64,000 nucleotides of DNA, taken from a virus (lineage: Duplodnaviria > Heunggongvirae > Uroviricota > Caudoviricetes). A program made the translations under genes and the position numbers. Below are positions 6,895-59,347 of the stretch, piece after piece. How positions within the stretch are numbered: position 1 is the first letter of the stretch; each line of letters opens with the position of its first letter. The notes below the pieces were generated by a model. It saw nothing but the letters and a program-made list of their open reading frames with translations. It searched no databases and had not been told where the DNA came from. The stretch is from positions 46,918 through 110,917 of the IMG/VR virus record IMGVR_UViG_2974695582_000001. One strand, given 5' to 3'.

Positions 6895-7095
6895 ATGATG
6901 AACGGCTACTTCCTCAGGGGAATCACAGAAGACAATATTCTTGTTTTCAGAAGTGATGACCCTGAGGAGCTTCTACGTATTATCAAGCGACTATGCGCCA
7001 GCCGCGATAAACAAATTAGAGCGCTAGCAGAACAACTAGAAATTGACTGGAACAGTCGAGAAAATACAAGAAAAGGTAATAATAAAACTAGATGA
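6895..7095 (+). CDS. hypothetical protein
   Basis: 66-aa ORF in operon context. Confidence 0.4.
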   Translation: MMNGYFLRGITEDNILVFRSDDPEELLRIIKRLCASRDKQIRALAEQLEIDWNSRENTRKGNNKTR

Positions 7096-8416: not shown

Positions 8417-8644
8417 ATGTGGTGGTCGTGGGTTTTGACCGCAGTAGGTGTCACAGGTCTATATTTTGCTGGCAAGAACAATAAGCTCGGATGGGCTATT
8501 GGAATCTTTGCCCAGACCTTGTGGACAGCATATGCTCTGACTACAGAGCAGTATGGTTTCCTAGTATCAGCCTTTGCGTATGGCTGGGTGTATGTGAAGA
8601 ACTATCTAGCTTGGAGGAAAATTGAGCGAAGCGGAAGAGATTAA
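8417..8644 (+). CDS. hypothetical membrane protein
   Basis: 75 aa with two hydrophobic helices. Confidence 0.45.
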   Translation: MWWSWVLTAVGVTGLYFAGKNNKLGWAIGIFAQTLWTAYALTTEQYGFLVSAFAYGWVYVKNYLAWRKIERSGRD

Positions 8645-12690: not shown

Positions 12691-13343
12691 GAATGCTTGT
12701 AATTGTTCCTACACGTGGTAGGCCAGAGAACATTGTTCGTTTGGACAAGGCCATGCTTGACACAGAGGTCGATGTTGAGGTAATGTACTGTGTTGATGAA
12801 GACGACCCGCGACTGGCAGATTATGTCAGGACCGGAATTCCTCTAGTGGTTGGACCCAGAAAGCGACTCGTTGGAACACTGAATGATGTTGCCACACAGT
12901 TTGCTGACGATTATGATATTGTTGCCTTCCTTGGTGATGATGTTCTTCCTAAGACTCATCGTTGGGACAACATCCTTCGTGACAACTTCAAGCCAAACAT
13001 GGTAGCCTACGGAAACGATGGTCACCAGGGAGAGGGTCTTCCTACGGGAGTGTTTTTGGATGCTCGCATCGTAACTGGACTTGGCTACATGGTTCCGCCA
13101 ACATTTATTCACCTCTTCGCAGATAATTACTGGAAGACGTTGGGTGAGGCTCTTGGAACCTTGACGTATCTTCCGGGGGTTGACATGGAGCATCTGCACC
13201 CTTACGCTGGTAAGGCAGAGCACGACGAAACTTATGCACAGGCGAATGCTGGTCCTGTGTGGGAGAATGATGAGCGTGCATTTAATGAATACGTCAAGAA
13301 TGAATTGGCGTTCGATGTGGAGATTCTACAGCTTAATGAGTAA
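12687..13343 (+). CDS. putative nucleotide-diphospho-sugar glycosyltransferase
   Basis: N-terminal LVIVPTRGRPENI (GT-A-like), with a DD-containing segment. Confidence 0.35.
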   Translation: MRMLVIVPTRGRPENIVRLDKAMLDTEVDVEVMYCVDEDDPRLADYVRTGIPLVVGPRKRLVGTLNDVATQFADDYDIVAFLGDDVLPKTHRWDNILRDNFKPNMVAYGNDGHQGEGLPTGVFLDARIVTGLGYMVPPTFIHLFADNYWKTLGEALGTLTYLPGVDMEHLHPYAGKAEHDETYAQANAGPVWENDERAFNEYVKNELAFDVEILQLNE

Positions 13344-13782
13344 CATTGTTTATACAGGTGGAACATTTGATTTGTTCCATGAAGGACATATTGAGCTTCT
13401 TCGCTCTTGTCATCGAATTGCGGCGGGTGGAGAAGTTATCGTTGGTTTGAATACCGACGAATTTATTGCAGCATTCAAGAACAATCCGCCAATTCAGTCA
13501 TATCGGGAAAGAGCGCTTATGCTTGAATCTTGCCGATATGTTGATAGGGTTGTTCCCAACATCGGAAATGGTAGTTCGACTGTGACTATTCAGGACCAGA
13601 TTGATAATGGTTCTGTAATTGACATTGTGGCTATTGGTTCTGATTGGGCTGGTCGTGATTATTATGGCCAAATGGGGTTTACAAAGAAATGGCTTGATGA
13701 TAGAGATATCATCTTGATTTACATTGACAGAAGGACAGGAATGTCCACAACCAAGATTAAGGATAAGTTGAAGAATGCCTGA
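13336..13782 (+). CDS. cytidylyltransferase (HxGH nucleotidyltransferase, TagD/RfaE-domain-II-like)
   Basis: YTGGTFDLFHEGHIELL is the canonical (T/H)xGH motif. Start chosen at ATG 13336, overlapping the upstream stop. Confidence 0.7.
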   Translation: MSNIVYTGGTFDLFHEGHIELLRSCHRIAAGGEVIVGLNTDEFIAAFKNNPPIQSYRERALMLESCRYVDRVVPNIGNGSSTVTIQDQIDNGSVIDIVAIGSDWAGRDYYGQMGFTKKWLDDRDIILIYIDRRTGMSTTKIKDKLKNA

Positions 13783-14424: not shown

Positions 14425-14973
14425 ATGATTATTGGCTTGGCTGGATATGCTAGGTCAGGTAAGGATTCGGCTGCCGATGCTCTAGAGAGCATCGGCTTTC
14501 GCCGTATTGCCTTCGCTGACAAGTTGAGAGAATTCATGTACGAGATGAATCCCCCACTGAATTGCAATGGAATGATTGTAAGTTTGCGGGATGTCATTGA
14601 TAAGCATGGATGGAATGGATACAAGGAGACCATTTGGGCTCAGGATATTAGAAGGTGGATGCAGATAGTTGGTACTAACTGTGTTCGTGGTATTCTCGGA
14701 AATGAAATTTGGGCGGATGCTACATTTAATTCCATGTATATGGATAAGAATTATGTGGTGACAGATGTTCGTTTCATTAACGAAGCCAATGGTATTAGGC
14801 AGCGTGGTGGAAGAATGTATAGGATTGTTCGAGAAGGCATTGGTCCTGCGAATAATCACGTTTCCGAAACTGCCCTCGACAATTACGATTACGATGGATT
14901 CATTCATAATGATGGAACTCTTGAGGAGTTTCACGATAGTGTAAGGAGAAGGATTCTTGAGGGTAGGAGTTGA
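14425..14973 (+). CDS. P-loop kinase, putative deoxynucleoside monophosphate kinase
   Basis: GLAGYARSGKDS P-loop. Lies in a nucleotide-metabolism cluster. Confidence 0.45.
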   Translation: MIIGLAGYARSGKDSAADALESIGFRRIAFADKLREFMYEMNPPLNCNGMIVSLRDVIDKHGWNGYKETIWAQDIRRWMQIVGTNCVRGILGNEIWADATFNSMYMDKNYVVTDVRFINEANGIRQRGGRMYRIVREGIGPANNHVSETALDNYDYDGFIHNDGTLEEFHDSVRRRILEGRS

Positions 14974-15526
14974 CCTAGATGGAGTGTGCTACGACTTTGC
15001 ACACTCTTTTCGCCGGGCTCTATTTGAGCTAGGCGTATACAATGACTATAAGGTAGTAGAAGGAGAGCCTGACAATTGGCACTTCTACCTTGACTGGGGA
15101 CTGACGCAAGACGAATTTGTACAGTTTTGCCATCAGGGTGTAGACCGTGGTACAGTCTTTGGGTATGGCGGACCAAGGGATGATGCTCCAGCAGCTCTCA
15201 GCTTTTTGAGGGCGATGGGACATTCTATCCATATCGTTACCGACCGCTCTTTTGGTACGGTCCCTGAGAATTCCCACGATGTCACTAGAAAGTGGCTCTC
15301 CCACTTTGGGTTTGAGTATGATACACTTACCTTCTCAGCAGACAAGACGTGTGTTCCTACTGATGTCTTCATTGAGGATAAGTTGGAAAACTATGATGCG
15401 CTTGTTGCTGCGGGTGTTGACTGCTATCTTGTTGACCGACCCTGGAATCAAGATGGTGATGATGGTCGTAAGAGGATTAAGAGCATTCAGCAGTTTGCCA
15501 CTATTGTGGGAAACATGACTGTTTGA
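14957..15526 (+). CDS. 5'(3')-deoxyribonucleotidase (HAD superfamily)
   Basis: VDLDGV HAD motif I at the N-terminus. About 189 aa. Confidence 0.6.
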   Translation: MRVGVDLDGVCYDFAHSFRRALFELGVYNDYKVVEGEPDNWHFYLDWGLTQDEFVQFCHQGVDRGTVFGYGGPRDDAPAALSFLRAMGHSIHIVTDRSFGTVPENSHDVTRKWLSHFGFEYDTLTFSADKTCVPTDVFIEDKLENYDALVAAGVDCYLVDRPWNQDGDDGRKRIKSIQQFATIVGNMTV

Positions 15527-20897: not shown

Positions 20898-20984
20898 GGA
20901 AGGTCAATCCGATTGGCGACGGAACTTGTCTTGAAAACAAGCGAGGTGTGAAAGCCCTTAGGAGTTCGACTCTCCTACCTTCCG
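20898..20984 (+). tRNA. tRNA-Ser (anticodon TGA), type II
   Basis: Acceptor ggaaggt/accttcc (perfect). Anticodon stem cttgt/acaag with loop cttgaaa. Long variable arm. T-arm aggag-ttcgact-ctcct. Confidence 0.6.
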
Positions 20985-21376: not shown

Positions 21377-21586
21377 ATGCTGATGGCAGCACGAGTTAAG
21401 AAGTTTGACCTTGTTGAGCTTGACAAGGACGGCTGGTTCTCTGCTAAGGTTAGTGGAAAGTTCCGGGGTCTGGTCGAGAAGACTGGACGAAGCAATTACA
21501 CACTTCATCTTGGCAAGGATGATGTAACTAACTTCAAGACTAAGAAGGCTCTTGAGACTTGGCTCACCGAGAAGTGGGCAGTTTAA
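21377..21586 (+). CDS. hypothetical protein
   Basis: 69-aa ORF after AAGGAG SD. Confidence 0.45.
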   Translation: MLMAARVKKFDLVELDKDGWFSAKVSGKFRGLVEKTGRSNYTLHLGKDDVTNFKTKKALETWLTEKWAV

Positions 21587-21610
21587 GTAAAACAACAAAA
21601 TATTGAAAGC

Positions 21611-21683
21611 GTTCGGGTCGGATGCATTCGTTTATCACTCATTGGCGACTAAATAACGATTGCTCTAACATATCCGTGCACAA
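21611..21683 (+). ncRNA. Y RNA-like ncRNA, locus 3 (compact, about 70 nt)
   Basis: 5' gTTCGGGTCGGATGcattcGTTTATCACTCATTGg resembles hY1 GUUAUCUCAAUUG. 3' aaCATATCCGtgcac pairs with the 5' CGGAT. Confidence 0.5.
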
Positions 21684-21687
21684 CTTC

Positions 21688-21849
21688 TAGCCCCTAAAGA
21701 TTTCGGGTCGGATGTTCTTTGGTTAACTCAATTGGAATGAAAAGTTCTGGGTTCGAATCCCAGCGGGTCCACTCTTGGGCCTGTAGTTTAACTGGCAAAA
21801 CTAAAACCCGAGGAACGCTTATATATCCGTGATTATCTTTAGGGGCTAA
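21688..21849 (+). ncRNA. YrlA-like Y RNA with embedded tRNA-like module, locus 4
   Basis: 13-bp terminal stem TAGCCCCTAAAGA/TCTTTAGGGGCTA. Inner TTCGGGTCGGATG...GGTTAACTCAATTGGAATG Y motif. tRNA-like T-arm ctgggttcgaatcccag followed by cgggtcc. 3' partner tATATATCCGtga. Followed by AAGCTT. Confidence 0.55.
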
Positions 21850-21874
21850 GCTTTTGTCTAGAAAAGGAGAGACA

Positions 21875-22060
21875 ATGCCTCGCTACGAAAAGAAGCCCAA
21901 GATTAATGCCAACCTGGTTAAGCGCTATGACGAGGAGTATTACCGAGTGCTTGACGACAACGAAATGATGCTGCTAAAGTGTAAGGGCAATGTTCGGCCT
22001 GAGGGTCGGATGCAGGAAACCAAGACGCATATCATCAGCTATTACATTGAGGTGGATTAA
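21875..22060 (+). CDS. hypothetical protein
   Basis: ATG after AAAAGGAGAG SD. 61 aa. Confidence 0.45.
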   Translation: MPRYEKKPKINANLVKRYDEEYYRVLDDNEMMLLKCKGNVRPEGRMQETKTHIISYYIEVD

Positions 22061-22498: not shown

Positions 22499-24115
22499 AT
22501 GTCTAATGCACTTGGTAAGTACGCCGGTAGCCAGAAGGCTGCAAAGGTTGCGACTCCTCAGACAAAGCGGACTCCGGGCCGTACGGATGAGGTAAAGAAC
22601 AACGCGGGCGGGTTTGTGTTTAAGGTTGACGACAAGTCTCGACTTGAGCGTTTCCTTATCCTTGGTACTGATAAGGGTACCTACTACGTTGGTGAGCAGA
22701 AGTTGACGGCTCAGAACGTTTCTTTCCTGAAGAACCTGGTTCAGAAGGATGAGCGTCTGGTTGTGGACACGCTTGTTGACGTTTCTGTAAATGGTCGTGC
22801 GCTTAAGAATTCTCCTGCGCTGTTCGCTCTGGCCACGGTTATGACGGAGGGCAAGGATAAGGCTTACGCTCGTGAGGCCGTTCAGAAGGTTGCTCGTACT
22901 TCTACCCACCTTTTCGAGTACGCACAGTACATCGATGACCTGGGTGGTTGGGGTCGTGCAAAGCGTCGTTCTGTCGCTGAGTGGTACGAGAACAAGTCTC
23001 TGGATACGCTTGCGTATCAGGCTGTTAAGTACCGTCAGAGGAATGGTTGGACGCACCGTGACCTGTTCCGTCTGTCTCACCCTCAGGGTGTGGACCAGGG
23101 TGTTGGTAACTTCATCCTTGGTAAGGACGCAGAGTCTGAGGTGGAAATTCTTAAGGGCTTCGCTGAGATGCAGTCTGCGACTTCGGTCAAGGACGTTATC
23201 AAGACGCTGGAGACTTTTAAGAACCTTCCGTGGGAGACCATCCCTACTCAGTTCCTCAAGGACGTGAAGGTGTGGAAGACTCTCTTCTACAATGGTCAGC
23301 TTCGTGGCCAGGCTCTCATTCGCAACATCACTCGACTCGCTCGAATTGGTGCGTTTGATGACATGGTTTTCGCAACTGACTACGCGAATGCAATTGCTAA
23401 CCAGGAAATGATTCAGAAGACTCGTCTTCACCCAATCAACTTCCTGAATGCGGTTGTTGTTCATGAGTACGGTCAGATTGACCGTAACGGCTACAGCATG
23501 TGGAGTGCCGGACGTAAGAAGGATTGGAAGTCTAATGGAAAGATTGTGGATGCTCTCAATGAGGGATTCCACATGGCGTTCAAGGCTGTCGAGCCTTCTG
23601 GCAAGAGGACTCTTGTTGCGACTGACGTTTCTGGCTCAATGAGTCAGAGCGCTATCGGACTCGACCTTTCTTGTGCTCAGGTTTCTGCGGCTGTTGCTAT
23701 GACGGTTGCTCGCACCGAGCCTTACAGTGACATTGTTGGCTTCTCTAGCAGCATTGTTGACTTGGGTATTACCGCAAAGAGTTCTTTTGCCGACGCAATG
23801 CGTAAGGTGAGTAACAGGAACTTCGGTGGTACGGATGCGGCTGCTGCAATTAAGTACGCTGACCAGAAGGGAATTCAGGTTGACACCTTCGTCGTTATCA
23901 CTGATAACGAGACGTGGGGCGGAAGCCAGAAGCCTTTCCAGGCACTTAAGCAGTACCGTCAGAAGACCGGAATCGATGCGCGTCTAGCGGTTCTTGGTGT
24001 TGCGTCTACGGACTTCAGCATCGCTGACCCAACTGACCGTGGTATGATGGACTTCGTTGGTTTCGATGCCAATGCGCCAAGGGCTCTTGCAGACTTCAGC
24101 GCTGGTCGTATCTGA
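22499..24115 (+). CDS. rsr: Ro60/TROVE-domain ribonucleoprotein (Rsr ortholog) with C-terminal vWA/MIDAS
   Basis: Direct similarity to the Ro60 TROVE core: RLERFLILGTDKGTYYVGEQKL versus human [22 protein letters not shown], plus PALFALA. vWA MIDAS motif VATDVSGSMS. About 538 aa from ATG 22499. Confidence 0.9.
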   Translation: MSNALGKYAGSQKAAKVATPQTKRTPGRTDEVKNNAGGFVFKVDDKSRLERFLILGTDKGTYYVGEQKLTAQNVSFLKNLVQKDERLVVDTLVDVSVNGRALKNSPALFALATVMTEGKDKAYAREAVQKVARTSTHLFEYAQYIDDLGGWGRAKRRSVAEWYENKSLDTLAYQAVKYRQRNGWTHRDLFRLSHPQGVDQGVGNFILGKDAESEVEILKGFAEMQSATSVKDVIKTLETFKNLPWETIPTQFLKDVKVWKTLFYNGQLRGQALIRNITRLARIGAFDDMVFATDYANAIANQEMIQKTRLHPINFLNAVVVHEYGQIDRNGYSMWSAGRKKDWKSNGKIVDALNEGFHMAFKAVEPSGKRTLVATDVSGSMSQSAIGLDLSCAQVSAAVAMTVARTEPYSDIVGFSSSIVDLGITAKSSFADAMRKVSNRNFGGTDAAAAIKYADQKGIQVDTFVVITDNETWGGSQKPFQALKQYRQKTGIDARLAVLGVASTDFSIADPTDRGMMDFVGFDANAPRALADFSAGRI

Positions 24116-27324: not shown

Positions 27325-28131
27325 ATGTTTGGTCGTCGTAACAAGCCTGCCTTCGTTGCTGATAACACTAAGCGAGTTCTGAAGACTGTCAAGGTTATTA
27401 AGCGTGACCCTTCTACGGCTGCTGCGCCTGTTGACATGATTAAGAAGGTTGGCGTTTCCTTCGAGAAGAAGGTTGAGTCTGCTGTCAATCTGAATAAGAA
27501 TGTCAGTGGTCCTTCTCGCGGTGTTGTTTGGAATGTAATTGGTCTGCTTGATGAGTCTTACTCTATGGACCCGTTTTTCTATGATGGCACTGTTCAGGAA
27601 ATTGTTGACCGCGTCCTTGCTTGGTCTGCATCCGTTGATGCTGATGGTCTGGTGCCTTTCGGCGGGTTTGCTAACAGTCACGTTTGGCATGGTGACGTTG
27701 ACCTGACGAACGTTAATAACGTCGTTGCTACAAATGGCTGGTCCCCGTGGGGTGGTACCAACCTTGCTGACTCTCTGAAGGCTATCCTTGACATGGTTAA
27801 GGACATGGGAGATGCTTGGCAGGAGAACCCCATCCTTCTGTTCATTGTGACGGATGGTATGCCTCAGAACCAGGCTCTTGTGAAGCAGTACATTCAGGAG
27901 CTTTCTCAGTATCCTGTGTTCATCAAGATTCTGCGGGTTGGAAATGACCCTGGCGCTAAGGCTTTTGTTGAGGACCTTGACAACATGAACACTGGTCGTC
28001 TGGTTGACAATGTTGAGGCTCCGGATGATGGTCTGCACAAGGGTATGTCTGATGACAAGTTCAATGCTGCTATGATTCACGACATGGACAAGTACGTCAA
28101 TGAGGCTACTGCGGCGGGGCTGCTTAGCTGA
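27325..28131 (+). CDS. von Willebrand factor A (vWA) domain protein (TerY-like)
   Basis: MIDAS motif LLDESYSM. Also GGTNLADSL and FIVTDG. Confidence 0.7.
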   Translation: MFGRRNKPAFVADNTKRVLKTVKVIKRDPSTAAAPVDMIKKVGVSFEKKVESAVNLNKNVSGPSRGVVWNVIGLLDESYSMDPFFYDGTVQEIVDRVLAWSASVDADGLVPFGGFANSHVWHGDVDLTNVNNVVATNGWSPWGGTNLADSLKAILDMVKDMGDAWQENPILLFIVTDGMPQNQALVKQYIQELSQYPVFIKILRVGNDPGAKAFVEDLDNMNTGRLVDNVEAPDDGLHKGMSDDKFNAAMIHDMDKYVNEATAAGLLS

Positions 28132-30415: not shown

Positions 30416-30720
30416 CTTCAGTTCTGGTAAAAATCCAGTCTGAGTTTATACAGAGTTTGGAAGGTAAGCCGGTTCGATTCCGGCAGACTGATGGGTCAGG
30501 GCGCGGTTCGAGTCCGCTATATAAATATGGGTGCAAATAGGGTAGCTCCCGCCGAGTCAGGTTCGAATCCTGGCACTCTGTATAAAGCTTACAAGACACG
30601 GGGGCTTGGCCCGTCCTCCAATCATGAGTCTTGGGTCTCAGTCCAATCGAGATTTAGAGTTAACGGGCTTGCCAGGGGTAGCTTGGTTTCGACTTTGCTG
30701 GATGACATATGAACGCAACC
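30416..30720 (+). other. cluster of degenerate tRNA fragments / T-arm-like hairpins (no intact cloverleaf)
   Basis: Four GGTTCGA(A/T/G)TCC T-arm hairpins, at 30470, 30497, 30560 and about 30690. One has a perfect 7-bp acceptor-like pairing (cagtctg/cagactg) but only about 25 nt between acceptor and T-arm. Confidence 0.4.
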
Positions 30721-30883
30721 CTTCTTGGTCAAAGAAGTAAAACGGGCCAAAACAATAAATGCAAACTCTAAGAATGCATCTGCATACGCCCTTGCGGCGT
30801 AAGAGCCGGGTTTGTCGTTGACCTAGGAACAGAACAACGACTAGACAAAATGTGTAGATAATGTGTAAGACCCTTCAGTGTGA

Positions 30884-35034: not shown

Positions 35035-35124
35035 GGAAGTGTGGCTGAGTCCGGTTTAAGGCGCTTCACTGCTAATGAAGTGGTTTCGTAAAGAGGCCCG
35101 CAGGTTCGAATCCTGTCACTTCCG
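35035..35124 (+). tRNA. tRNA-Ser (anticodon GCT), type II
   Basis: Acceptor ggaagtg/cacttcc. Anticodon stem cttca/tgaag with loop ctgctaa. Long variable arm. T-arm gcagg-ttcgaat-cctgt. Confidence 0.6.
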
Positions 35125-35143
35125 CGTATTGTATAATAGTTCC

Positions 35144-35455: not shown

Positions 35456-35734
35456 TTGCTAACATGGCTTTTGAGCAGCGCCGTACTCGGTGTTATGCTA
35501 GCCATTCTTAGGTTGGGTTGGAAGGTTATTCGCGGATATGATAAGGCTCGAAAAGAGCTTATTCCGGCAGTTTCTTCAAATAGAGCTGGGGTAACCATTC
35601 TAAGACGCAAAAAGTTCAGAGCGGTTAAAACAGCTCTAGGCTTCAAAGAGCTTGCTGGGGGTCATATCAACTATAAAGAATATGAACCTCAACGCAATAT
35701 GAGCATTATGGAATACAACCTTACACTCAAGTGA
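35456..35734 (+). CDS. hypothetical membrane protein
   Basis: 92 aa with an N-terminal TM helix. Confidence 0.45.
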   Translation: MLTWLLSSAVLGVMLAILRLGWKVIRGYDKARKELIPAVSSNRAGVTILRRKKFRAVKTALGFKELAGGHINYKEYEPQRNMSIMEYNLTLK

Positions 35735-35770
35735 TTTGCATTTTAACTACACGGCATGTATAGTTAAAGT

Positions 35771-36232
35771 ATGACAGAGAAAAGATGTAGCTTTCCAGAT
35801 TGCGAATACCCCTTCCTAGCGAAGGGGTATTGCAACAATCACTATCAGCAATCAAGGTCTGGTAGAGAGCTTGTTCCAGTAAGGCCAAGGTCAAAAAATG
35901 GTTCTGGAACGATTAACACAGATGGCTATAGAATCGTCTATAAGCCTGGCCATCCCAATTGCCAATCAAATGGTAGGATTGCCGAACATCGTTGGGTCAT
36001 GTCGGAAAGTCTTGGAAGACCTCTTGAGGAGTATGAAGAGGTTCATCACAAGAATGGTGACAGACTTGACAATCGCCTTGAGAATCTGGAACTATGGGTT
36101 CGTAGGCAGCCGCCTGGACAACGGGCGGAAGACTTGCTAGAGTGGGCATACGAAATCATTAGACGATATGGAGATGAAAATGACTCACGTTTCAGCAATC
36201 TTTTCAGTGGACGACCTGAACAAGGCAATTGA
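35771..36232 (+). CDS. HNH homing endonuclease (HNH_3-like)
   Basis: GYRIVYKPGHP...GRIAEHRWVM...EVHHKNGDRLDNRLENLEL. Confidence 0.65.
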   Translation: MTEKRCSFPDCEYPFLAKGYCNNHYQQSRSGRELVPVRPRSKNGSGTINTDGYRIVYKPGHPNCQSNGRIAEHRWVMSESLGRPLEEYEEVHHKNGDRLDNRLENLELWVRRQPPGQRAEDLLEWAYEIIRRYGDENDSRFSNLFSGRPEQGN

Positions 36233-37247
36233 GGACGGTTGGGTCAGGGTCCAGACGAATGAGGATAATACCCTCTCTATTTACAATTATACAGAAGCGA
36301 GCCAGTATAAGCGTTACTGGAATGATGTGACGCTGAATTGTCGGGGTTTGATTCTCGACAGCTACAATCACATTGTGGCACGTCCTTGGAAGAAGTTCTT
36401 CAATTTCGGTGAGCGTCCGCTTCTGTTTTCTACGGATGACCCAGTTGAGGTAACGGATAAGAAGGATGGCTCATTGGGTATTCTTTACCAGCACCCAATG
36501 ACTGGTGATTACCGAATTGCAACTCGTGGCTCTTTTCTTTCTGACCAGGCAATTCACGCAACAAACGTCTGGGATAACAAGTACAGCCACATTGCAGACC
36601 CGTGGCACGGAGTAACCTTCTTGTTTGAGATTGTGTACCCTGAGAACCGCATTGTTTTGGATTATGGTGAGACTGATGACCTTATCCTTCTTGGTGCAGT
36701 TCAGAATCAGTACGGTTGGTACTACGGTCCCAACGAGGCTGCGGGTATGCTCAACTGGACTGGCCCGGTCACAGAGGTCTTTGAGTACCGCACCACGAAC
36801 GACTGCTTCAAGGTGCATCGCTCAAATGCTGAGGGTCTGGTAATTCGGTGCGGTAGTGAGATGGTCAAGTTGAAGCAGGAGGACTACGTAGCTTTGCACA
36901 AGCTAGTTACGGGTCTGAACGAGCGGGCTGTGTGGGAGCGCTTGATGGCAGGTGAGAGTCGTGATACTATCTGTTCATCGCTTCCGGATGAGTTCCACGG
37001 ATTTGTTGACAAGGTGGCCGATGAGCTGGAGACTCAGTTCAAGGAGATTTACCACTCTTCTCACGTGAGTTACTGCGAGATTCTTAACAAGATGCCTGGA
37101 AAGTCGGCACTTCCTAAGAATGAGTGGCGTAAGTTGTTTGCATCATATGCGGTAAAGATGCCCAACTACGACCTTATATTCAATTACTTGGACAACCGTC
37201 CGGTTGCTGAGTCAATTTGGAAGATGATTCGTCCGAAGGGTGAGTAA
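36180..37247 (+). CDS. ATP-dependent RNA ligase, Rnl1 (T4 RnlA)-like
   Basis: Nucleotidyltransferase motif I VTDKKDGSLGILY (KxDGSL as in T4 Rnl1). 355 aa. A Pnk-like kinase lies downstream. Confidence 0.6.
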   Translation: MTHVSAIFSVDDLNKAIEDGWVRVQTNEDNTLSIYNYTEASQYKRYWNDVTLNCRGLILDSYNHIVARPWKKFFNFGERPLLFSTDDPVEVTDKKDGSLGILYQHPMTGDYRIATRGSFLSDQAIHATNVWDNKYSHIADPWHGVTFLFEIVYPENRIVLDYGETDDLILLGAVQNQYGWYYGPNEAAGMLNWTGPVTEVFEYRTTNDCFKVHRSNAEGLVIRCGSEMVKLKQEDYVALHKLVTGLNERAVWERLMAGESRDTICSSLPDEFHGFVDKVADELETQFKEIYHSSHVSYCEILNKMPGKSALPKNEWRKLFASYAVKMPNYDLIFNYLDNRPVAESIWKMIRPKGE

Positions 37248-37269
37248 TTAAATGTGGTCCCTGATTCCC

Positions 37270-37310
37270 CCGGCATATCTGTTACTTGGAATTGCCGGGG
37301 GTTCTTGGGT
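37270..37310 (+). terminator. Rho-independent terminator
   Basis: CCCCCGGCAtatctgttacttggaatTGCCGGGGGttctt. Confidence 0.55.
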
Positions 37311-37406
37311 TAACTTTTCGTTCTGGTCTGGTCTACTGACACTATGTGTGGTAGGGTGGGTCAAGTTAAGTTAACCGCTGCGGGCTAGTCCCGCAAGCTT
37401 GGAGGT

Positions 37407-37679
37407 ATGATGGATTACGAAAAGATTATTGATGGATATAACGACCTTCGTGAAACATGTCTTGTAATTGCTAAGCTTAACGATGAATTGATGGGTCCAG
37501 ATAGATGGCTGAAGTTTGCCATTCAGGATTCTGACATCACGCTGATGTTTACAGAGCGAGGCATCGTGTGCTATGGTAGTGCTTACACGACACAGACTAT
37601 GGACAACGAACACTTCAGTTTCATGATTCCGTTTGAATACATAGAGGAGTTTGAGGCAAATGCTAGAGCTGGTGATTAA
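37407..37679 (+). CDS. hypothetical protein
   Basis: 90-aa ORF after GGAGG. Confidence 0.45.
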   Translation: MMDYEKIIDGYNDLRETCLVIAKLNDELMGPDRWLKFAIQDSDITLMFTERGIVCYGSAYTTQTMDNEHFSFMIPFEYIEEFEANARAGD

Positions 37680-38085
37680 CCGGGGGATTCCGGGAAGCGG
37701 TAAGTCAACGTATGCTCGCAAGTGGGTATTCGATGGAACTCCGCTCAATCGTCGTGCTAGAGTTAACCGTGATGACATCCGTAAGCAGCTTTACGGAGTT
37801 GACTTCGGGGTTCCAGTTGAGGAGACTGCTGTAACTGCTGTCGAGTACGCTATGATTCGCTCTTTGCTTGAGCGCGGAGTGTCTGTTATTGTTGACGACT
37901 GCAACATCAGTCAGCGATACATTACTGCATTTACAAAGATTGCAAAGGAGTTTGATGCTGAGGTGAGGGTAAACCTTATCGATGTTGAGCTTGATGTTGC
38001 AATCCAGCGTAATCAGGGCAGGGAGCGTTTCGTTCCTGTCCATGTAATTGAGGACATGTATAGGCGACTTCAGGAGCAACTGTGA
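37651..38085 (+). CDS. polynucleotide kinase-like P-loop kinase (Pnk/zeta-toxin fold)
   Basis: Walker A GIPGSGKST. Walker B-like IVDDCN. 144 aa. Confidence 0.55.
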   Translation: MRQMLELVINRGIPGSGKSTYARKWVFDGTPLNRRARVNRDDIRKQLYGVDFGVPVEETAVTAVEYAMIRSLLERGVSVIVDDCNISQRYITAFTKIAKEFDAEVRVNLIDVELDVAIQRNQGRERFVPVHVIEDMYRRLQEQL

Positions 38086-38276
38086 TGATTCTTGGAATTC
38101 TCGGCGGGATTCTGGTAACATGGTTTCTCGCCGGGTTTGTCCTTGCAGGAGTATGGACTATTCTTGCAAGTGAACCTGCTGACAAGTTTATCGGAGTAGT
38201 TGTAATCGTAGTTGCTTCTGTGATATGGTGGTTCCTAGTAGGAACACACATTAATTGGGATGGTCTAATTGAATAA
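38082..38276 (+). CDS. hypothetical membrane protein
   Basis: 64 aa with two TM helices. Confidence 0.4.
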   Translation: MMILGILGGILVTWFLAGFVLAGVWTILASEPADKFIGVVVIVVASVIWWFLVGTHINWDGLIE

Positions 38277-38493
38277 TATTCCAGAAGCAGATTATTTCGA
38301 TTCGATTGAGGTCCTTCCACACGAAGAAGATTTCACCATGTGGAAGGTTGTTGGAATCAGAATTGATATGGACAACATCAAGTCCACCATCTTGAAGGAT
38401 TACATCGCGAACAAGGCCCTTGCGGAAGCGTTCGTAAGATGGTACACTGATAAGTATTGGTTGGACATGTTCGGTGGGGCGCAAGACTGCTGA
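38269..38493 (+). CDS. hypothetical protein
   Basis: 74-aa ORF. Confidence 0.4.
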   Translation: MNNIPEADYFDSIEVLPHEEDFTMWKVVGIRIDMDNIKSTILKDYIANKALAEAFVRWYTDKYWLDMFGGAQDC

Positions 38494-38561: not shown

Positions 38562-38644
38562 GCCCGTGTGGTGGAATTCGGCAGACACGCTAGTCTTAGG
38601 AACTAGTCTCTTCGGGGGTGCAGGTTCAAGTCCTGTCACGGGTA
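38562..38644 (+). tRNA. tRNA-Leu (anticodon TAG), type II
   Basis: Acceptor gcccgtg/cacgggt. Anticodon stem ctagt/actag with loop cttagga. Long variable arm. T-arm gcagg-ttcaagt-cctgt. Confidence 0.6.
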
Positions 38645-38673
38645 CGTAAAGATTAACAATCAAGGAGTTAATA

Positions 38674-40884: not shown

Positions 40885-41095
40885 GAAACTGTACTATGTT
40901 CTTATCAAGCCTGGTGGTAAGCCTCTTGGGTATGGTAAGAAGGGTGGCGGTAAGTACACAAGTCGTTCCGCTGCTGAATCTCAGGCAGAAGATTTGAAGA
41001 AGCAAGGTGTCAATGTGACTTTGTGGGAATCTTCAGAGATTGATTGGACTGAAGTTCCAATTTCGGTTCCAGAGAACCAGGAACCTCTATGGTAA
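40859..41095 (+). CDS. hypothetical protein
   Basis: 78-aa ORF. Confidence 0.4.
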   Translation: MMTMAGLPKKLYYVLIKPGGKPLGYGKKGGGKYTSRSAAESQAEDLKKQGVNVTLWESSEIDWTEVPISVPENQEPLW

Positions 41096-41772
41096 AGGTA
41101 CTATTCGTAACTGGTGCCGGGATTTCTGCTAATGCGGGAATCCCAACATACCGTGACGGAGGTTCATCATGGAAGGATGCCGACCTTGAGAAAAAGTCTC
41201 ACGCGTCCCGTTATGGCAACCACCTAGATGAGCTGTGGGATAAGCATTGGGGGCCTGTAGCAAAGGCTATGGGGCAGGCTGAGCCGACACAGACTCATCG
41301 TGCGATTGCTGAGTTTCAGAAGGACAACCCCAGCATCGTAGCAACTCAGAACATCGATGACTTGCACGAACGGGCGGGGTCTGATAACGTAGCTCATGTG
41401 CACGGAAGTATGGTCATTAAGTGCATCCGATGTAAGCGAAGCCACCTTGAAACAAAGTGGTTTGGCAAGGGTGCACCTGTATGTCCTCACTGTGGAAAGT
41501 CTAAGACTCGTCCAGATGTGGTACTCTTTGGTGAGAAGTTGGACCTGAAGATGTTTGCTGCACTTGAGTCTTTCGCTAAGCATGATGCAGATGTTATTGT
41601 TGCTGTTGGAACCTCACTGAATGTGTTTCCTGCGGCGGGTTTGGTAATGGATAATATCGCAAAGTCTGTCATCATCAATAAGGAGAAGACACCTTTCGAC
41701 AAGTTCGCGTACAAGGTCTACAATGATGATTGTGATTCCGTAATTGATGAAGTCCTAGGAGGACTAAACTAA
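41089..41772 (+). CDS. Sir2-family NAD-dependent protein deacylase / ADP-ribosyltransferase (sirtuin)
   Basis: Sir2 family motifs: GAGISANAGIPTYR, QNIDDLHERAG, catalytic HG (AHVHGS). Zn ribbon CIRC...CPHC. Also RPDVVLFGE. Confidence 0.85.
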   Translation: MVKVLFVTGAGISANAGIPTYRDGGSSWKDADLEKKSHASRYGNHLDELWDKHWGPVAKAMGQAEPTQTHRAIAEFQKDNPSIVATQNIDDLHERAGSDNVAHVHGSMVIKCIRCKRSHLETKWFGKGAPVCPHCGKSKTRPDVVLFGEKLDLKMFAALESFAKHDADVIVAVGTSLNVFPAAGLVMDNIAKSVIINKEKTPFDKFAYKVYNDDCDSVIDEVLGGLN

Positions 41773-42249
41773 ATGGTAACGTATGTCAAGGGTGATGCGA
41801 CCAATCCTCAGGGTGATGGTCCAAAGATTATCGCTCACGTCTGCAATGATGAGGGCGGATGGGGAGCAGGATTTGTTCTGGCAGTTGATAAGTTGTCTCC
41901 GCGCCCGAAGAATTTTTACAAGAATGAGTACGCGTTCTATATGAACGCTGGTTATGCATTCATGCCTCTTGGCGTGATTGACGTTGTTCCTGTTGGTGGG
42001 GATGTTTATGTGTGCAATATGGTTGCCCAACATCGCACAATTCGTTCAGTTGAAAAGCCTATCTGTTACAAGTCTCTTGAGATTTGCCTGACTAAGTTGG
42101 CTGAGTATGCTGTTGCTGAAAACGCAACAGTTCATATGCCTCGCATTGGCTGCGGTCTTGCGGGTGGCAACTGGGATGTGGTAGAGTCAATTATCAACCG
42201 CACACTGACTCTTCGAGATGTGGATGTCACTGTGTATGACCTTCCGTAA
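41773..42249 (+). CDS. macrodomain protein (ADP-ribose binding/hydrolase)
   Basis: Macro-fold motifs: VKGDATNPQGDGPKIIAHVCNDEGGWGAGF and IGCGLAGGNW. Lies immediately after the sirtuin gene. Confidence 0.65.
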   Translation: MVTYVKGDATNPQGDGPKIIAHVCNDEGGWGAGFVLAVDKLSPRPKNFYKNEYAFYMNAGYAFMPLGVIDVVPVGGDVYVCNMVAQHRTIRSVEKPICYKSLEICLTKLAEYAVAENATVHMPRIGCGLAGGNWDVVESIINRTLTLRDVDVTVYDLP

Positions 42250-45518: not shown

Positions 45519-46298
45519 ATGTCTAAGATTATGATTCTTGGTGACGTTCATGGCGAGACTAAGTGGCTTGTCAACATGATTAACAAGGCAAAGCGGGCGG
45601 GTGTCAAGAAGATTGTTCAGGTTGGTGACTTCGGAATGTGGACTCACGAGGCTGAGGGTCACCGGTTCCTTGACCGCTCGAATGAGGAGCTTCGTAAGCA
45701 TGGAATTAAGCTCTATTTCGTTGGCGGTAACCATGAGAACTGGGACCACCTAAATTGGCATGAGAAGAATGGCGCAAAGGACTGGAATGGACATACGTTC
45801 ATTCGGTCTCACATCCTTTACACTGGTCGAGTTAATCGCTGGGTTTGGGGTGAGAAGGGTGAGGAGAAGGTTTTCCAGGCCGTTGGTGGCGCATGGTCAA
45901 TTGACCGTCGTCGGCGGGTTGTGGGAAAGACTCTTTGGCTTGATGAGACTATTCCAGACCAGGTTGTTTATGGACTGGAGAAGGCCAATCGTAAGTGTGA
46001 CTATCTGTTCACTCATGATGGTCCTACCTGTCTTCCCTATGCCAATCTGAAGCCTGACCCTGACTCTCATATCCATCGTCAGAAGATGGACCGAATTGGA
46101 CTTGCAACCCGGCCGAATCTGTGGTTTCATGGTCACTATCACAAGTGGATGGAGTACAGCTTTGAGCACACGCAGAGGAGCGATTTCGCCTTTGTGTATG
46201 GTCTTGACCGGGATTACCAGTTCTATTCTTATGTGATTCTGGACACAGTTTCCGATGATGTGGAGACTGCAACAGGTAAGGTTATTGAGCACAGTTAA
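45519..46298 (+). CDS. calcineurin-like metallophosphoesterase (Ser/Thr phosphatase fold)
   Basis: Motifs ILGDVHGE, VGDFG, GGNHE and HGHYH. Confidence 0.75.
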   Translation: MSKIMILGDVHGETKWLVNMINKAKRAGVKKIVQVGDFGMWTHEAEGHRFLDRSNEELRKHGIKLYFVGGNHENWDHLNWHEKNGAKDWNGHTFIRSHILYTGRVNRWVWGEKGEEKVFQAVGGAWSIDRRRRVVGKTLWLDETIPDQVVYGLEKANRKCDYLFTHDGPTCLPYANLKPDPDSHIHRQKMDRIGLATRPNLWFHGHYHKWMEYSFEHTQRSDFAFVYGLDRDYQFYSYVILDTVSDDVETATGKVIEHS

Positions 46299-53931: not shown

Positions 53932-54195
53932 ATGAGAGAAATTTGCGAAGAACTAGCGCACTGGTTTTTGGTGCATGACTATAAATGGAAGTTTGATTAT
54001 GGCCACGGAAATCCGGATGCGGATGACATTGAGGCTGTAGTTAACCGAGCAATGCAATTGCTGAGTGTTGAAGATACTGATACCAGACTTGAAGTTGGTC
54101 GTCTTATCTTCATGAAGAATGCTGAGCTGGGTTTGGTAGACATCTTTGTCCACGCTGGAACAATTGGAGAAAATGATGAAGACAGCAACGTTTGA
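53932..54195 (+). CDS. hypothetical protein
   Basis: 87 aa. Confidence 0.4.
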   Translation: MREICEELAHWFLVHDYKWKFDYGHGNPDADDIEAVVNRAMQLLSVEDTDTRLEVGRLIFMKNAELGLVDIFVHAGTIGENDEDSNV

Positions 54196-54598
54196 TTACA
54201 CTGAGATGGCCGTAGTTGACAGCAGCTTTATTGACGCTGTTTACTACAACGACAAGACGAGTGAACTTGCGGTAAGTATGCTTAACGGAGACACGCATTT
54301 CTATGGCGCTGTCCCCGCCCGCACCTTCTACAGCCTTGTTGATGGTCCATCCGCTGGTGCTGCTTACAACCGTGAGGTTAAGGACCAGTTCACGAACCTT
54401 GGCAACGGGCCAGTTCATGAGGTACAGTTTATTTCATACGAGCCTGGCGTTAACAAGCGCTTCCAGGTTCATGCTACAGTAAAGTATCAGCAGTTCTTTG
54501 ACGCTGAGACTGCTGCGGACGCTGCCAAGCAGATGGAGAAGTACATGGCTCCAAACTATGGTAACGTATCAATCACGGAGGTAAAGGAAATTGGGTGA
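54173..54598 (+). CDS. KTSC-domain protein
   Basis: SSFIDAVYYNDKTSELAVSMLNGDTHFYGAVPARTFYSLVDGPSAGAAYN matches the KTSC (lysyl-tRNA synthetase C-terminal-like) signature. Confidence 0.55.
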   Translation: MMKTATFDYTEMAVVDSSFIDAVYYNDKTSELAVSMLNGDTHFYGAVPARTFYSLVDGPSAGAAYNREVKDQFTNLGNGPVHEVQFISYEPGVNKRFQVHATVKYQQFFDAETAADAAKQMEKYMAPNYGNVSITEVKEIG

Positions 54599-55714: not shown

Positions 55715-56209
55715 ATGCATGTCGTACCTAAATTTGAAGGTGACCATAGATTCCTCAGCAACTTTTACCACGCGCCTACACGTTTTGTTTTGGCCGATGA
55801 CATCATAGTCATGCCGACTGGCGAACACGCTTTCCAGGCTGCCAAGTGCAACGCGATGCTTGACAAGTCGGAAAAGTTGGAGTACGTTCGTCGTGTTGCA
55901 ACTGCTGAAACTCCCGGCATCGCCAAGCAGGAAGGGCAGAAGGTCAAGATTGACCTTGACCATTGGGAGTCGGTTCGTGTAGATTGTATGCGTGAAGTTG
56001 TCTTCCAAAAGTTCTTGCAGCATCCTGACTTAAGAACACAGCTTCTTAAAACAGGCGATGCTATGCTTGTGGAAGGAAATACCTGGGGTGATAAATTCTG
56101 GGGAAGAGTAGATGGCAAGGGTTTTAATAAGCTCGGTGTCATTTTGATGGAAGTGCGTGGATACTGGCTTTGGCAGACACGCAGAAATAGCCCGGAGATG
56201 GGGTCATGA
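55715..56209 (+). CDS. NADAR-domain protein (YbiA-like; putative ADP-ribose processing / DNA-ADP-ribose glycohydrolase)
   Basis: FLSNFY, EHAFQAAK, W..VR...M, LLKTGDAMLVE, DKFWGRVDGKGFNKLGVILMEVR: canonical NADAR/DUF1768 signature. Confidence 0.8.
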   Translation: MHVVPKFEGDHRFLSNFYHAPTRFVLADDIIVMPTGEHAFQAAKCNAMLDKSEKLEYVRRVATAETPGIAKQEGQKVKIDLDHWESVRVDCMREVVFQKFLQHPDLRTQLLKTGDAMLVEGNTWGDKFWGRVDGKGFNKLGVILMEVRGYWLWQTRRNSPEMGS

Positions 56210-57335: not shown

Positions 57336-57983
57336 ATGCGTGAGTATTCAAAGACCGATAACCTTTACAAGCGCAACCCGAAGAAGAAGTCTGAGCTGCT
57401 TGTTGGAGAGTACACCCGTCCTGAGTTCGCTCTTATCAATTCTTGGTGGGTTACTGAGAAGGTTGACGGTACCAACGTACGTCTTTGGTTTGACAAGGAC
57501 GAGAACACCAATTATGGTGGTCGCACAGACAATGCACAGTTCAGCCCGGTTCAGCAAGAGTTTATGTCTAACCTTGTTGATTCTATCAAGGAGGATGCGG
57601 TAAGTCTTATTCATCGTCATGGATTGAATGAGCTGCTTATCTTCGGTGAGCTTTATGGACCGAAGATTCTTTCTGGCGGGAATTATTCTGACAGTCTAGA
57701 CTTTCGAGCGTTTGACATGATGGTCAATAACCGGGTATGGTTGAATCCTGATTCGGTGAACCAGAATGCGTCAGACCTTGGTCTGAAGATGGTTCCTAAT
57801 TTTGGAATGATGACCACTGCTCAGATTTTCTTGATGGTTGCGGGTGGCTTTAAGTCCACCTTTGCGAAGAACCCTGAGTTTGATGCTGAGGGTGTAATTG
57901 CTCAACCTCCAGTTAATCTTTATGACCAGCGTGGTGAGCGTGTTAAGTTCAAGTTGAAGACAAAGGATTTGAGGCACGTCTAA
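57336..57983 (+). CDS. RNA ligase Rnl2-like nucleotidyltransferase domain protein
   Basis: N-terminal YSKTDNLY...WVTEKVDGTNVRLWF parallels T4 Rnl2 YSSLENHY...REKIHGTNFSL, with a KxDG motif I. 215 aa (no C-terminal domain). Confidence 0.5.
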   Translation: MREYSKTDNLYKRNPKKKSELLVGEYTRPEFALINSWWVTEKVDGTNVRLWFDKDENTNYGGRTDNAQFSPVQQEFMSNLVDSIKEDAVSLIHRHGLNELLIFGELYGPKILSGGNYSDSLDFRAFDMMVNNRVWLNPDSVNQNASDLGLKMVPNFGMMTTAQIFLMVAGGFKSTFAKNPEFDAEGVIAQPPVNLYDQRGERVKFKLKTKDLRHV

Positions 57984-58966: not shown

Positions 58967-59347
58967 ATGATTGAGTACAACACTACATGTAATGTAAACG
59001 GAACTAACATTCTTTGTGATTTGAAGTATGACAAGGCGAATCCGGCCGAAGTCAGCTTTACATTCCATGTTAACGAGAACTCTCCCGAATGGGTCTTTTC
59101 CAGGGACCTTCTTGGTGAGGTAATGTCTAGTCGTGGTAAGGCTGGTCAGGGTGACGTTCTTCTTTATGACCACGGTGACGCAGTTAGCTTGCTTTTGCGT
59201 TCACCTGAGGGAAAGGGTCTCGCTATTTTCCAGCGAGAGGTCATTAAGGAATTCGTTGATGAGATGTACAATGAAGTTCCAAAGCATGATGATGTCCTTC
59301 CTCTCGATGATGACAGCTTGCAGGAATGGCTAGAGGGTTTGGTTTAA
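58967..59347 (+). CDS. hypothetical protein
   Basis: 126-aa ORF. Confidence 0.5.
   Translation: MIEYNTTCNVNGTNILCDLKYDKANPAEVSFTFHVNENSPEWVFSRDLLGEVMSSRGKAGQGDVLLYDHGDAVSLLLRSPEGKGLAIFQREVIKEFVDEMYNEVPKHDDVLPLDDDSLQEWLEGLV

Follow-up and report, generated by a model that had tools for sequence, protein, structure and literature searches.

A T4-type RNA kinase–ligase locus in Streptomyces phage Comrade with a polynucleotide kinase shortened by loss of its phosphatase domain

The DNA analysed here is a window of 64,000 nucleotides from Streptomyces phage Comrade (MH651172.1 / NC_048728.1; record positions 46918-110917), a 129-kb siphovirus of the family Stanwilliamsviridae, subfamily Loccivirinae and genus Gilsonvirus. 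Over window positions 35700-38300 a megablast comparison gave 100% identity to Comrade. Our subject is an RNA ligase gene (gp144) and a short polynucleotide kinase gene (gp146) that lie within its tRNA gene array. Four genes considered below already carry relevant names in GenBank, namely gp144 and gp204 (both 'RNA ligase'), gp146 ('polynucleotide kinase') and gp166 ('phosphoesterase'). An earlier reading of the nucleotide sequence alone, hereafter the original prediction, had proposed a tRNA healing-and-sealing module at this place in a stretch with about 30 tRNA genes, a count that agrees with the 31 tRNA genes and one tmRNA found by ARAGORN in the window. The locus comprises the following features, in window coordinates.

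35035-35125, plus strand: tRNA-Ser(gct), the conserved upstream limit of the syntenic block.
36180-37247, plus strand: gp144, an Rnl1-family ATP-dependent RNA ligase of 355 amino acids (aa), counted from the start that relatives support.
37252-37374, plus strand: a hydrophobic, membrane-type open reading frame (ORF) of 40 aa, unannotated in Comrade and called 'membrane protein' in Phredrick.
37410-37679, plus strand: gp145, a conserved protein of 89 aa (phrog_20718 at 6e-33).
37660-38085, plus strand: gp146, a kinase-only polynucleotide 5'-kinase of 141 aa that corresponds to the N-terminal half of a T4-type Pnkp.
38085-38276, plus strand: gp147, a small membrane protein whose start overlaps the gp146 stop codon.
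38562-38645, plus strand: tRNA-Leu(tag), the conserved downstream limit of the block.

The gene order tRNA-Ser(gct), Rnl1, small ORFs including the gp145 homologue, Pnk(p), small membrane protein and tRNA-Leu(tag), set inside the tRNA gene array, is common to Comrade, Gilson, Phredrick, Muntaha (Wakandavirus), Annadreamy and Sham (both Annadreamyvirus) and Wofford (Karimacvirus). In Comrade the ligase and kinase genes are about 0.4 kb apart with two small ORFs (40 and 89 aa) between them; the P-loop kinase that had been predicted to follow the ligase is thus real, although it is not its immediate neighbour.

The ligase belongs to the Rnl1 family by several lines of evidence. Its open frame spans 36168-37247, and since the proteins of relatives begin M[VT]HVS.IFS, the start at 36180 is better supported than the GenBank start at 36207, which cuts off nine residues kept in those relatives. 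Motif I reads D-K94-K-D-G-S-L (at about 36459), and the protein matches Pfam PF09511 (RNA_lig_T4_1) at 4.8e-16, with 59.7 bits against a cutoff of 28.3, as well as phrog_562 at 2e-72 over profile positions 9-362 of 377. The NCBIfam equivalog TIGR02308 gives 77 bits against a cutoff of 242, and by these profile scores gp144 is a member of the Rnl1 family but no close equivalog of T4 RnlA. When searched with phmmer against PDB sequences, gp144 had a single match, T4 Rnl1 (2c5u, 1.5e-15), of which residues R54, K75, F77, K99, E159, E227, G228, K240 and K242 are kept, and motifs I (K94-K-D-G), III (E), IV (EG) and V (KxK) are invariant across 40 homologues.

Structure prediction points the same way. 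An AlphaFold model of gp144 built with 40 homologues as input (predicted local distance difference test, pLDDT, 92.9) has an all-helical C-terminal domain, with predicted helices over residues 234-349. Its best Foldseek matches are the T4 Rnl1 entries 2c5u, 5tt6 and 9do4, with E-values down to 7e-18, about 380 aligned columns and a template modelling (TM) score of 0.59, followed by the ligase domain of fungal Trl1. According to the model, gp144 carries the all-helical C-terminal domain specific to Rnl1 that is associated with tRNA specificity. The original prediction of an Rnl1-like ligase at 36180 with a KxDGSL motif is therefore borne out by PF09511, phrog_562, the T4 Rnl1 matches and the relatives' start, and the protein is not a DNA ligase. 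The ratio of nonsynonymous to synonymous substitution rates (dN/dS) of the gene is 0.06-0.2.

Immediately upstream, the gene of the HNH endonuclease gp143 is an insertion that Comrade shares with Stigma and SparkleGoddess alone; at its 3' end it overlaps the start of the ligase gene. The GenBank start of this gene, 35999, looks too short; a 153-aa ORF begins at 35771 (35771-36232), with a Cys-rich motif at its N-terminus and a match to phrog_20891 over residues 22-135.

The kinase gp146 has the P-loop G9-IPGSGKST-17 and matches AAA_33 (1.9e-19) and the 'polynucleotide kinase' profile phrog_505 (2e-31), the latter only over positions 1-143 of 295. It aligns with the kinase domain of T4 Pnkp (1ltq, 9e-12) with K15, S16, D35, R38 and R126 all kept, also matches Capnocytophaga Pnkp1 (2.8e-10), and is not a deoxynucleoside monophosphate (dNMP) kinase. 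The corresponding slot in the relatives Muntaha, Wofford, Sham and Annadreamy holds a Pnkp of 290-296 aa composed of AAA_33 and PF25109 (HAD_PNKP, 3e-54) with a DxDGT motif. By comparison, the kinases of Comrade, Gilson and Phredrick are 139-141 aa long and stop at the inter-domain linker (...RRLQEQL, then the stop codon), with the homologous membrane-protein gene directly 3'. The gene found 3' of full-length Pnkp in the relatives is a homologue of gp147, which accordingly delimits the deletion on its 3' side.

No phosphatase remnant was seen 3' of the gp146 stop codon. A tblastn search of the entire 129-kb Comrade genome, window and remainder alike, with full-length Muntaha and Wofford Pnkp returned the kinase half only and no HAD_PNKP; a phosphatase domain hidden elsewhere in Comrade was rejected on this result, and the short kinase without phosphatase, as originally described, is confirmed. 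Lacking the HAD domain, gp146 is a kinase module derived from Pnkp and not itself a Pnkp. The 3' end of the truncated gene, CTTCAGG/AGCA...TGATG (slashes mark the junction), resembles a join of two Sham pnkp sequences around a shared CAGG(A), one from the end of the kinase (CTTCAGG/GT) and one from the extreme 3' end of pnkp (CCAGG/AGCA...TAATG). This resemblance suggests that a microhomology-mediated in-frame deletion removed the HAD domain. The kinase-only gene is under purifying selection (dN/dS 0.06-0.2).

A kinase-only allele in the metagenomic contig IMGVR_UViG_3300003320_000087 ends at the identical alignment column and is 64-66% identical to the Gilsonvirus kinases; the contig is sister to Gilsonvirus in the kinase tree and groups with Annadreamyvirus in the ligase tree. 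A second, independent HAD loss in this contig was rejected as unproven, since the shared truncation column and the sister position in the kinase tree make one old deletion followed by mosaicism more parsimonious than two losses.

To place this state among related loci, we surveyed 6 kb on either side of the 80 IMG/VR loci whose Rnl1 is closest (36-88% identity). Fused kinase and HAD Pnkp genes lay near 46 of them, separate kinase and HAD ORFs near two and kinase-only genes near five, three of which belong to the Comrade/Gilsonvirus lineage; the remaining 27 had no Pnk within 6 kb. With 46 fused loci against five kinase-only ones, a complete Pnkp beside Rnl1 is the norm and the Comrade state a minority variant. 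Among the 27 loci without Pnk are 12 of BRock-like type, at which a phrog_221 metallophosphoesterase is found close to Rnl1.

Two types of locus connected with this survey deserve separate mention. At 6984-7828 of locus L152 (IMG/VR 3300049201_000035) the kinase and HAD halves of Pnkp occupy overlapping ORFs in different frames right after Rnl1, which could reflect a frameshift introduced by sequencing, a gene split in two or programmed frameshifting. BRock (L005, 3468-6908) and the 12 BRock-like IMG/VR loci combine Rnl1, a 401-aa phrog_221 metallophosphoesterase and a MazG-like pyrophosphatase, with no recognisable Pnk kinase nearby; the BRock neighbours were rejected as homologues of gp146 or gp166, the phosphoesterase resembling gp49/phrog_221.

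The loss of the HAD domain raises the matter of 3'-end healing. Comrade encodes three metallophosphoesterases, gp166 (phrog_1649), gp232 (phrog_547) and gp49 (phrog_221), located 7.4 kb, 30 kb (downstream) and 39 kb from the module, so that none adjoins it; a kinase or ligase that shares a polypeptide or an operon with a calcineurin-type phosphoesterase is seen in other phages but not in Comrade. Two of the three are compared in detail here.

45519-46298, plus strand: gp166, a metallophosphoesterase (phrog_1649 at 1e-52).
Record positions 114781-115350, outside the window: gp232, a metallophosphoesterase of the aq_1665/phrog_547 type.

The original prediction had named the product of the gene at 45519 as a possible source of the 2',3'-cyclic phosphodiesterase and 3'-phosphatase activity that the short kinase lacks. 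That gp166 is a metallophosphoesterase holds, as judged from phrog_1649 and its metal ligands, but the 3'-healing role is unsupported and probably wrong. The motifs GDxHG, GDxxD, GNHE, H and GHxH are present; D9, H11, D37, N71, H72, H166, H204 and H206 are invariant in homologues from Streptomyces, Mycobacterium and Arthrobacter phages; and Pfam Metallophos_2 is matched with 25.6 bits, just under its cutoff of 27. Orthologues with 55-75% identity occur in phages with a complete Pnkp (Muntaha, Wofford, Annadreamy, Jay2Jay and others), and the presence of gp166 does not therefore track HAD loss.

For each of the gp166 and gp232 families, 80 IMG/VR loci were examined within a 6-kb neighbourhood. 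The gp166 family had a Pnk-like kinase at one locus and any repair partner at three, all directly adjacent. At one of these contigs (L370, 1829-5214) the phrog_1649 phosphoesterase abuts a Pnk-like kinase and Rnl1, and at two others (L324 and L326, 5968-7355) it abuts an Rnl2-like minimal ligase, an adjacency by which the gp166 family is not wholly cut off from RNA repair. The gp232 family had a Pnk-like kinase at 13 of its 80 loci and some partner at 16, with the kinase or ligase directly adjacent at ten (three for the gp166 family), often through overlapping stop and start codons. The difference in kinase linkage, 13/80 versus 1/80, has a Fisher p of 0.001, a value that overstates the support because IMG/VR loci are not phylogenetically independent.

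gp232 is homologous to Aquifex aq_1665 (PDB 1xm7, deposited as 'hypothetical protein aq_1665'); we know of no function assigned to the aq_1665/phrog_547 family. Several isolated phages show its members next to repair genes. In Vequintavirus HdK5 the phosphoesterase and kinase genes are divergent from Rnl1, cREC and Sir2; in VEcB the phosphoesterase gene comes first, then Rnl1 and then the kinase; Pakpunavirus PAK_P4 has it some 1 kb upstream of the pair Rnl1 and kinase; and in Vibrio phage D479 roughly 2 kb separate it from an annotated 'RNA ligase' gene. The kinases beside it in HdK5, VEcB and PAK_P4 are small AAA_33 kinases. Orthologues of gp232 are present in Gilsonvirus, contig IMGVR_UViG_3300003320_000087, Annadreamyvirus, Faust and Byblos; at E ≤ 1e-20 none was detected in Wakandavirus or BE1/BE2 phages. 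Since the HAD-keeping Annadreamyviruses have it too, the phosphoesterase is older than the deletion, and its presence could have rendered the HAD domain redundant. On these sequence comparisons gp232 is a better candidate than gp166 for 3' healing, a putative role for which the evidence is permissive and no proof.

A precedent for a metallophosphoesterase in place of HAD is the 766-aa kinase-Metallophos-Rnl1 fusion of Twort-like staphylococcal phages (LSA2308_00159); its phosphoesterase domain gave no tblastn match to gp49, gp166 or gp232 and belongs to a different Metallophos family. The phosphatase domains of Pnkp and Pnkp1 are likewise of different superfamilies (PMC4411300). Among the scanned window ORFs, no homologues of RtcB, 2H, KptA, Hen1, RlaP or cREC were seen. 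The 'phosphatase' gp83 (14957-15526) was rejected for RNA ends: it is a 5'-deoxynucleotidase of the NT5C type which, together with the adjoining dNMP kinase, indicates nucleotide metabolism rather than RNA-end repair.

We consider it likely that the locus is a Streptomyces-phage version of the T4-type Pnkp/Rnl1 healing-and-sealing system, in which the HAD domain has been deleted and 3' healing is supplied in trans, with gp232 the likeliest source. Under this interpretation, gp146 would phosphorylate 5'-OH RNA ends and gp144 would seal 3'-OH/5'-PO4 ends, the breaks being most plausibly tRNA anticodon loops cut by host ribotoxins, and the module may defend the tRNA pool against anticodon nucleases, as had been predicted. 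In the gp146 slot the ancestor in the phage family would have carried a Pnkp with both functions, kinase and HAD 3'-phosphatase; in the Gilsonvirus lineage an in-frame deletion would then have taken out exactly the phosphatase domain, the kinase-only allele being kept thereafter by purifying selection. Because Rnl1-type ligation needs a 3'-OH, removal of a 2',3'-cyclic or 3'-phosphate must now occur in trans, for which an enzyme of the aq_1665/phrog_547 type such as gp232 would be the likeliest supplier. The more far-reaching proposal, that gp232 took over this removal and that the widespread phrog_547 family is the 3'-healing partner of mini-Pnk kinases in many unrelated phages, is tentative and falls well short of probable.

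Several observations weigh against this reading, most of them against the part assigned to gp232. It lies 30 kb from the module; it also occurs in the HAD-keeping Annadreamyviruses, which makes it permissive for the loss and not specific to it; and at 64 of the 80 phrog_547 loci the surrounding 6 kb contain no repair partner, so that most members of the family probably do something else. The lack of independence among the IMG/VR loci weakens the linkage statistic. Comrade has two other candidates, gp49 and gp166, the gp49/phrog_221 type being found two genes downstream of Rnl1 in BRock-like phages and the gp166 family occasionally abutting a kinase or ligase (L370, L324). In the ligase, an Arg occupies the position of T4 Rnl1 K119, a conservative swap, and the host is a Gram-positive actinomycete for which no cognate nuclease is known.

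How the 3' end is dealt with separates two of the alternatives. That gp166 supplies the 2',3'-cyclic phosphodiesterase and 3'-phosphatase activity absent from the short kinase is improbable, in our judgement: its metallophosphoesterase active site is intact, its family abuts a Pnk-like kinase with Rnl1 or an Rnl2-like ligase at 3/80 loci (two distinct contig types), and enzymes of the CthPnkp type do use a calcineurin-type phosphatase, but its orthologues persist in complete-Pnkp phages, its family has a kinase nearby far less often than that of gp232, and the gene stands apart from the kinase, downstream of rIIA/rIIB-like genes. Alternatively, the phage may have no replacement at all, either because a host activity heals the 3' end or because the lineage meets only damage that needs kinase and ligase, or ligase alone. 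This explanation, which we hold to be possible but rather doubtful, gains from the absence of any HAD domain anywhere in the genome, from a module that none of the three metallophosphoesterases adjoins, from the stability of the kinase-only state over long divergence and from the 27 of 80 related Rnl1 loci without Pnk within 6 kb. It has to contend with the fact that T4 pseT alleles lacking the phosphatase alone are still restricted by prr+ hosts. Metal-independent ribotoxins whose cuts yield a 5'-OH, the end that a kinase serves to mend, yield a 2',3'-cyclic phosphate as well (PMC4411300). Taken together, these two points imply that a kinase without 3' healing would normally be useless to an Rnl1-type ligase.

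The remaining alternatives question whether the module repairs RNA breaks. Loss of a whole catalytic domain relative to the ancestral protein would suit a decaying remnant in a pathway that no longer works, yet at least 13 isolated phages and three metagenomic contigs have an intact frame, none of the five essential kinase residues has been lost, the kinase is as constrained as the ligase (dN/dS 0.06-0.2 for each) and translational coupling to the downstream gene is preserved, all of which leaves decay very hard to believe. Enzymes embedded in a tRNA/tmRNA array, in a phage that also encodes a Ro60/TROVE protein, preceded by a weak YrlA-like RNA match, might instead process or quality-control the phage's own tRNA, tmRNA or Y-like RNA together with Ro60, or act non-catalytically in tail-fibre attachment, as the RefSeq product name 'RNA ligase and tail fiber protein attachment catalyst', copied from T4 gp63, would have it. 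Such another task seems distinctly unlikely, given that ligation is not needed for normal tRNA maturation, that the RefSeq wording equals the phrog_562 description, that the Comrade annotation has a tape-measure protein, a major tail protein and a tail assembly chaperone but no T4-type long tail fibres, and that Rnl1 is paired with Pnk(p) at 53 of 80 loci, a signature of end healing and sealing.

Healing and sealing in T4 is a textbook model. Pnkp (PseT) and Rnl1 (RnlA, gp63) counter the anticodon nuclease PrrC, and Comrade shares with T4 the ligase family (PF09511, with a full-length match of the predicted fold), the kinase fold and its essential residues, the encoding of both genes by the phage and a tRNA-rich genome. 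It differs in lacking the HAD 3'-phosphatase domain, in the low identity of its proteins to their T4 counterparts (only about 23-30%) and in gene arrangement, the T4 ligase and kinase genes not being placed close together. In the other Stanwilliamsviridae (Annadreamy, Sham, Muntaha and Wofford) the block is orthologous and syntenic, with ligases 57-78% and kinases 46-56% identical, and the C-terminal HAD_PNKP (PF25109, DxDGT) is kept, whereas it is precisely deleted in Comrade and other Gilsonviruses. A similar bifunctional Pnkp of mycobacteriophages Omega and Cjw1 was reportedly characterised by Zhu et al. in 2004.

HAD-less Pnk-like kinases, stand-alone or N-terminal, combined with an ATP-dependent RNA ligase and a phosphoesterase of the calcineurin superfamily are found in Clostridium thermocellum Pnkp/Hen1, the Twort-like fusion and the cassettes of HdK5, VEcB and PAK_P4, the phosphoesterases of the last three being in the same phrog_547 family as gp232. 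Unlike in these split or fused cassettes, the Comrade phosphoesterase is remote from the module and its role conjectural, the kinase is of the T4-Pnkp subfamily (phrog_505) and not of phrog_2071, to which the enterobacterial and Pseudomonas mini-kinases belong, and no Hen1 or cREC partner was found among the scanned window ORFs.

The second ligase in the window represents a different clade.

57336-57983, plus strand: gp204, an RNA ligase of the Rnl2 clade (215 aa) that consists of the nucleotidyltransferase domain alone (PF09414 at 2e-17).

Its family profile matches the nucleotidyltransferase domain of T4 Rnl2 (1s68) at 8.7e-17 over positions 35-213, and the Rnl2-like ligase predicted at 57336 is confirmed by this match and by PF09414. 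Motif I has its lysine at K42, and gp204 shares motifs I, III, IIIa, IV and V with the nick-sealing T4 Rnl2 (gp24.1) but not the C-terminal domain of the latter, which is needed for ligation step 2. The protein ends in KFKLKTKDLRHV, about seven residues past motif V, and thus has no C-terminal domain. All 120 homologues among the matches listed are likewise single-domain proteins of 205-236 aa. The score against TIGR02307, 30.9 bits, is below the cutoff of 197. Members of this uniform family also occur in crAss-like and Lak phages.

Of the small neighbours in the block, gp145 lies upstream of Pnk(p) in Loccivirinae, adjoining it in Gilsonvirus and Annadreamyvirus and two genes upstream in Muntaha, and its position is kept in Gilson, Phredrick, Sham, Annadreamy and Muntaha. 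The family has only 16 clusters, all from phages of this type, and is under purifying selection (dN/dS 0.03-0.2). gp145 has no significant Pfam or NCBIfam match, and its AlphaFold model (pLDDT 91) has no PDB fold match below E = 0.1; we rejected it as the absent healing enzyme or a cREC domain, there being no significant domain or fold match. A weak match to the Acb2/Tad1 hairpin (E = 0.021) is treated as chance because it appears in only two of 17 family members.

Elsewhere in the window, the gap at 21586-21875, unannotated, contains at 21742-21802 (plus strand) a weak match to the Rfam YrlA (Y RNA-like) model, with 28.2 bits against a gathering threshold of 69 and E = 0.021 over 21 kb or 3e-4 over 341 nt. 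This element, in which the T-arm GGGUUCGAAUCCC is followed by the D-arm-like GUAGUUUAACUGGCAAAAC, precedes the Ro60/TROVE gene gp103 (22499-24115) by about 700 nt and may serve as the Y RNA that pairs with the Ro protein of the phage. Among the RNA genes, tRNA-Ser(tga) at 20898-20983 barely reaches the Rfam tRNA-Sec threshold (47.1 against 47), probably owing to its long variable arm, and the tmRNA region at 30560-30802 has, besides its standard tmRNA match, an overlapping one to the permuted-tmRNA model (49.5 against 47).

A set of genes centred on NAD (41089-42249, 55715-56209, 8417-8644 and 13336-13782) comprises the Sir2 protein gp161 (PF02146, 2e-36), the adjacent gp162 (phrog_335 at 1.3e-29, with a weak Macro match), gp199, which has a NADAR domain and is annotated hypothetical, a gene named in the annotation as a PnuC-like transporter, and gp79, a cytidylyltransferase-like nucleotidyltransferase (PF01467). 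Because Rnl1 is followed by cREC and Sir2 in Vequintavirus HdK5, the Sir2 gene may be functionally tied to RNA repair; a cREC near the Comrade Sir2 gene, as in HdK5, was rejected, there being none in the ORFs at 38-41 kb. gp209 (58967-59347), a hypothetical protein by its annotation, matches SsgA (PF04686, 7e-15), which acts in sporulation and cell division of Streptomyces, and is a phage-borne homologue of a host developmental regulator. Further domain matches are those of gp194 to KTSC (1e-9) and of gp113 to vWA/TerF (1e-25), at 54176-54598 and 27325-28131; gp113 sits among tRNA genes.

Literature searches turned up no publication dealing with this locus or with a kinase-only form of Pnkp. 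Phage RNA-repair sets have been surveyed and include tRNAs, Rnl1 or Rnl2, Pnk, HAD or occasionally calcineurin-type phosphatases, Ro/TROVE proteins and NAD-centred enzymes (PMC7824862); in view of these surveys the Comrade module is of an already known type. The module itself, a T4-type RNA repair pair in an actinophage already so named in GenBank, adds little. The HAD loss in Gilsonvirus is a modest new observation, and it opens the question of 3' healing to experiment. It is a natural and selectively maintained split of the Pnkp kinase from its phosphatase, with Gilsonvirus and Annadreamyvirus forming a clean genetic system in which to ask which activity counters which ribotoxin of the Streptomyces host. 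The aq_1665/phrog_547 phosphoesterases, repeatedly found beside mini-kinases and RNA ligases, are testable candidates for RNA end-healing enzymes.

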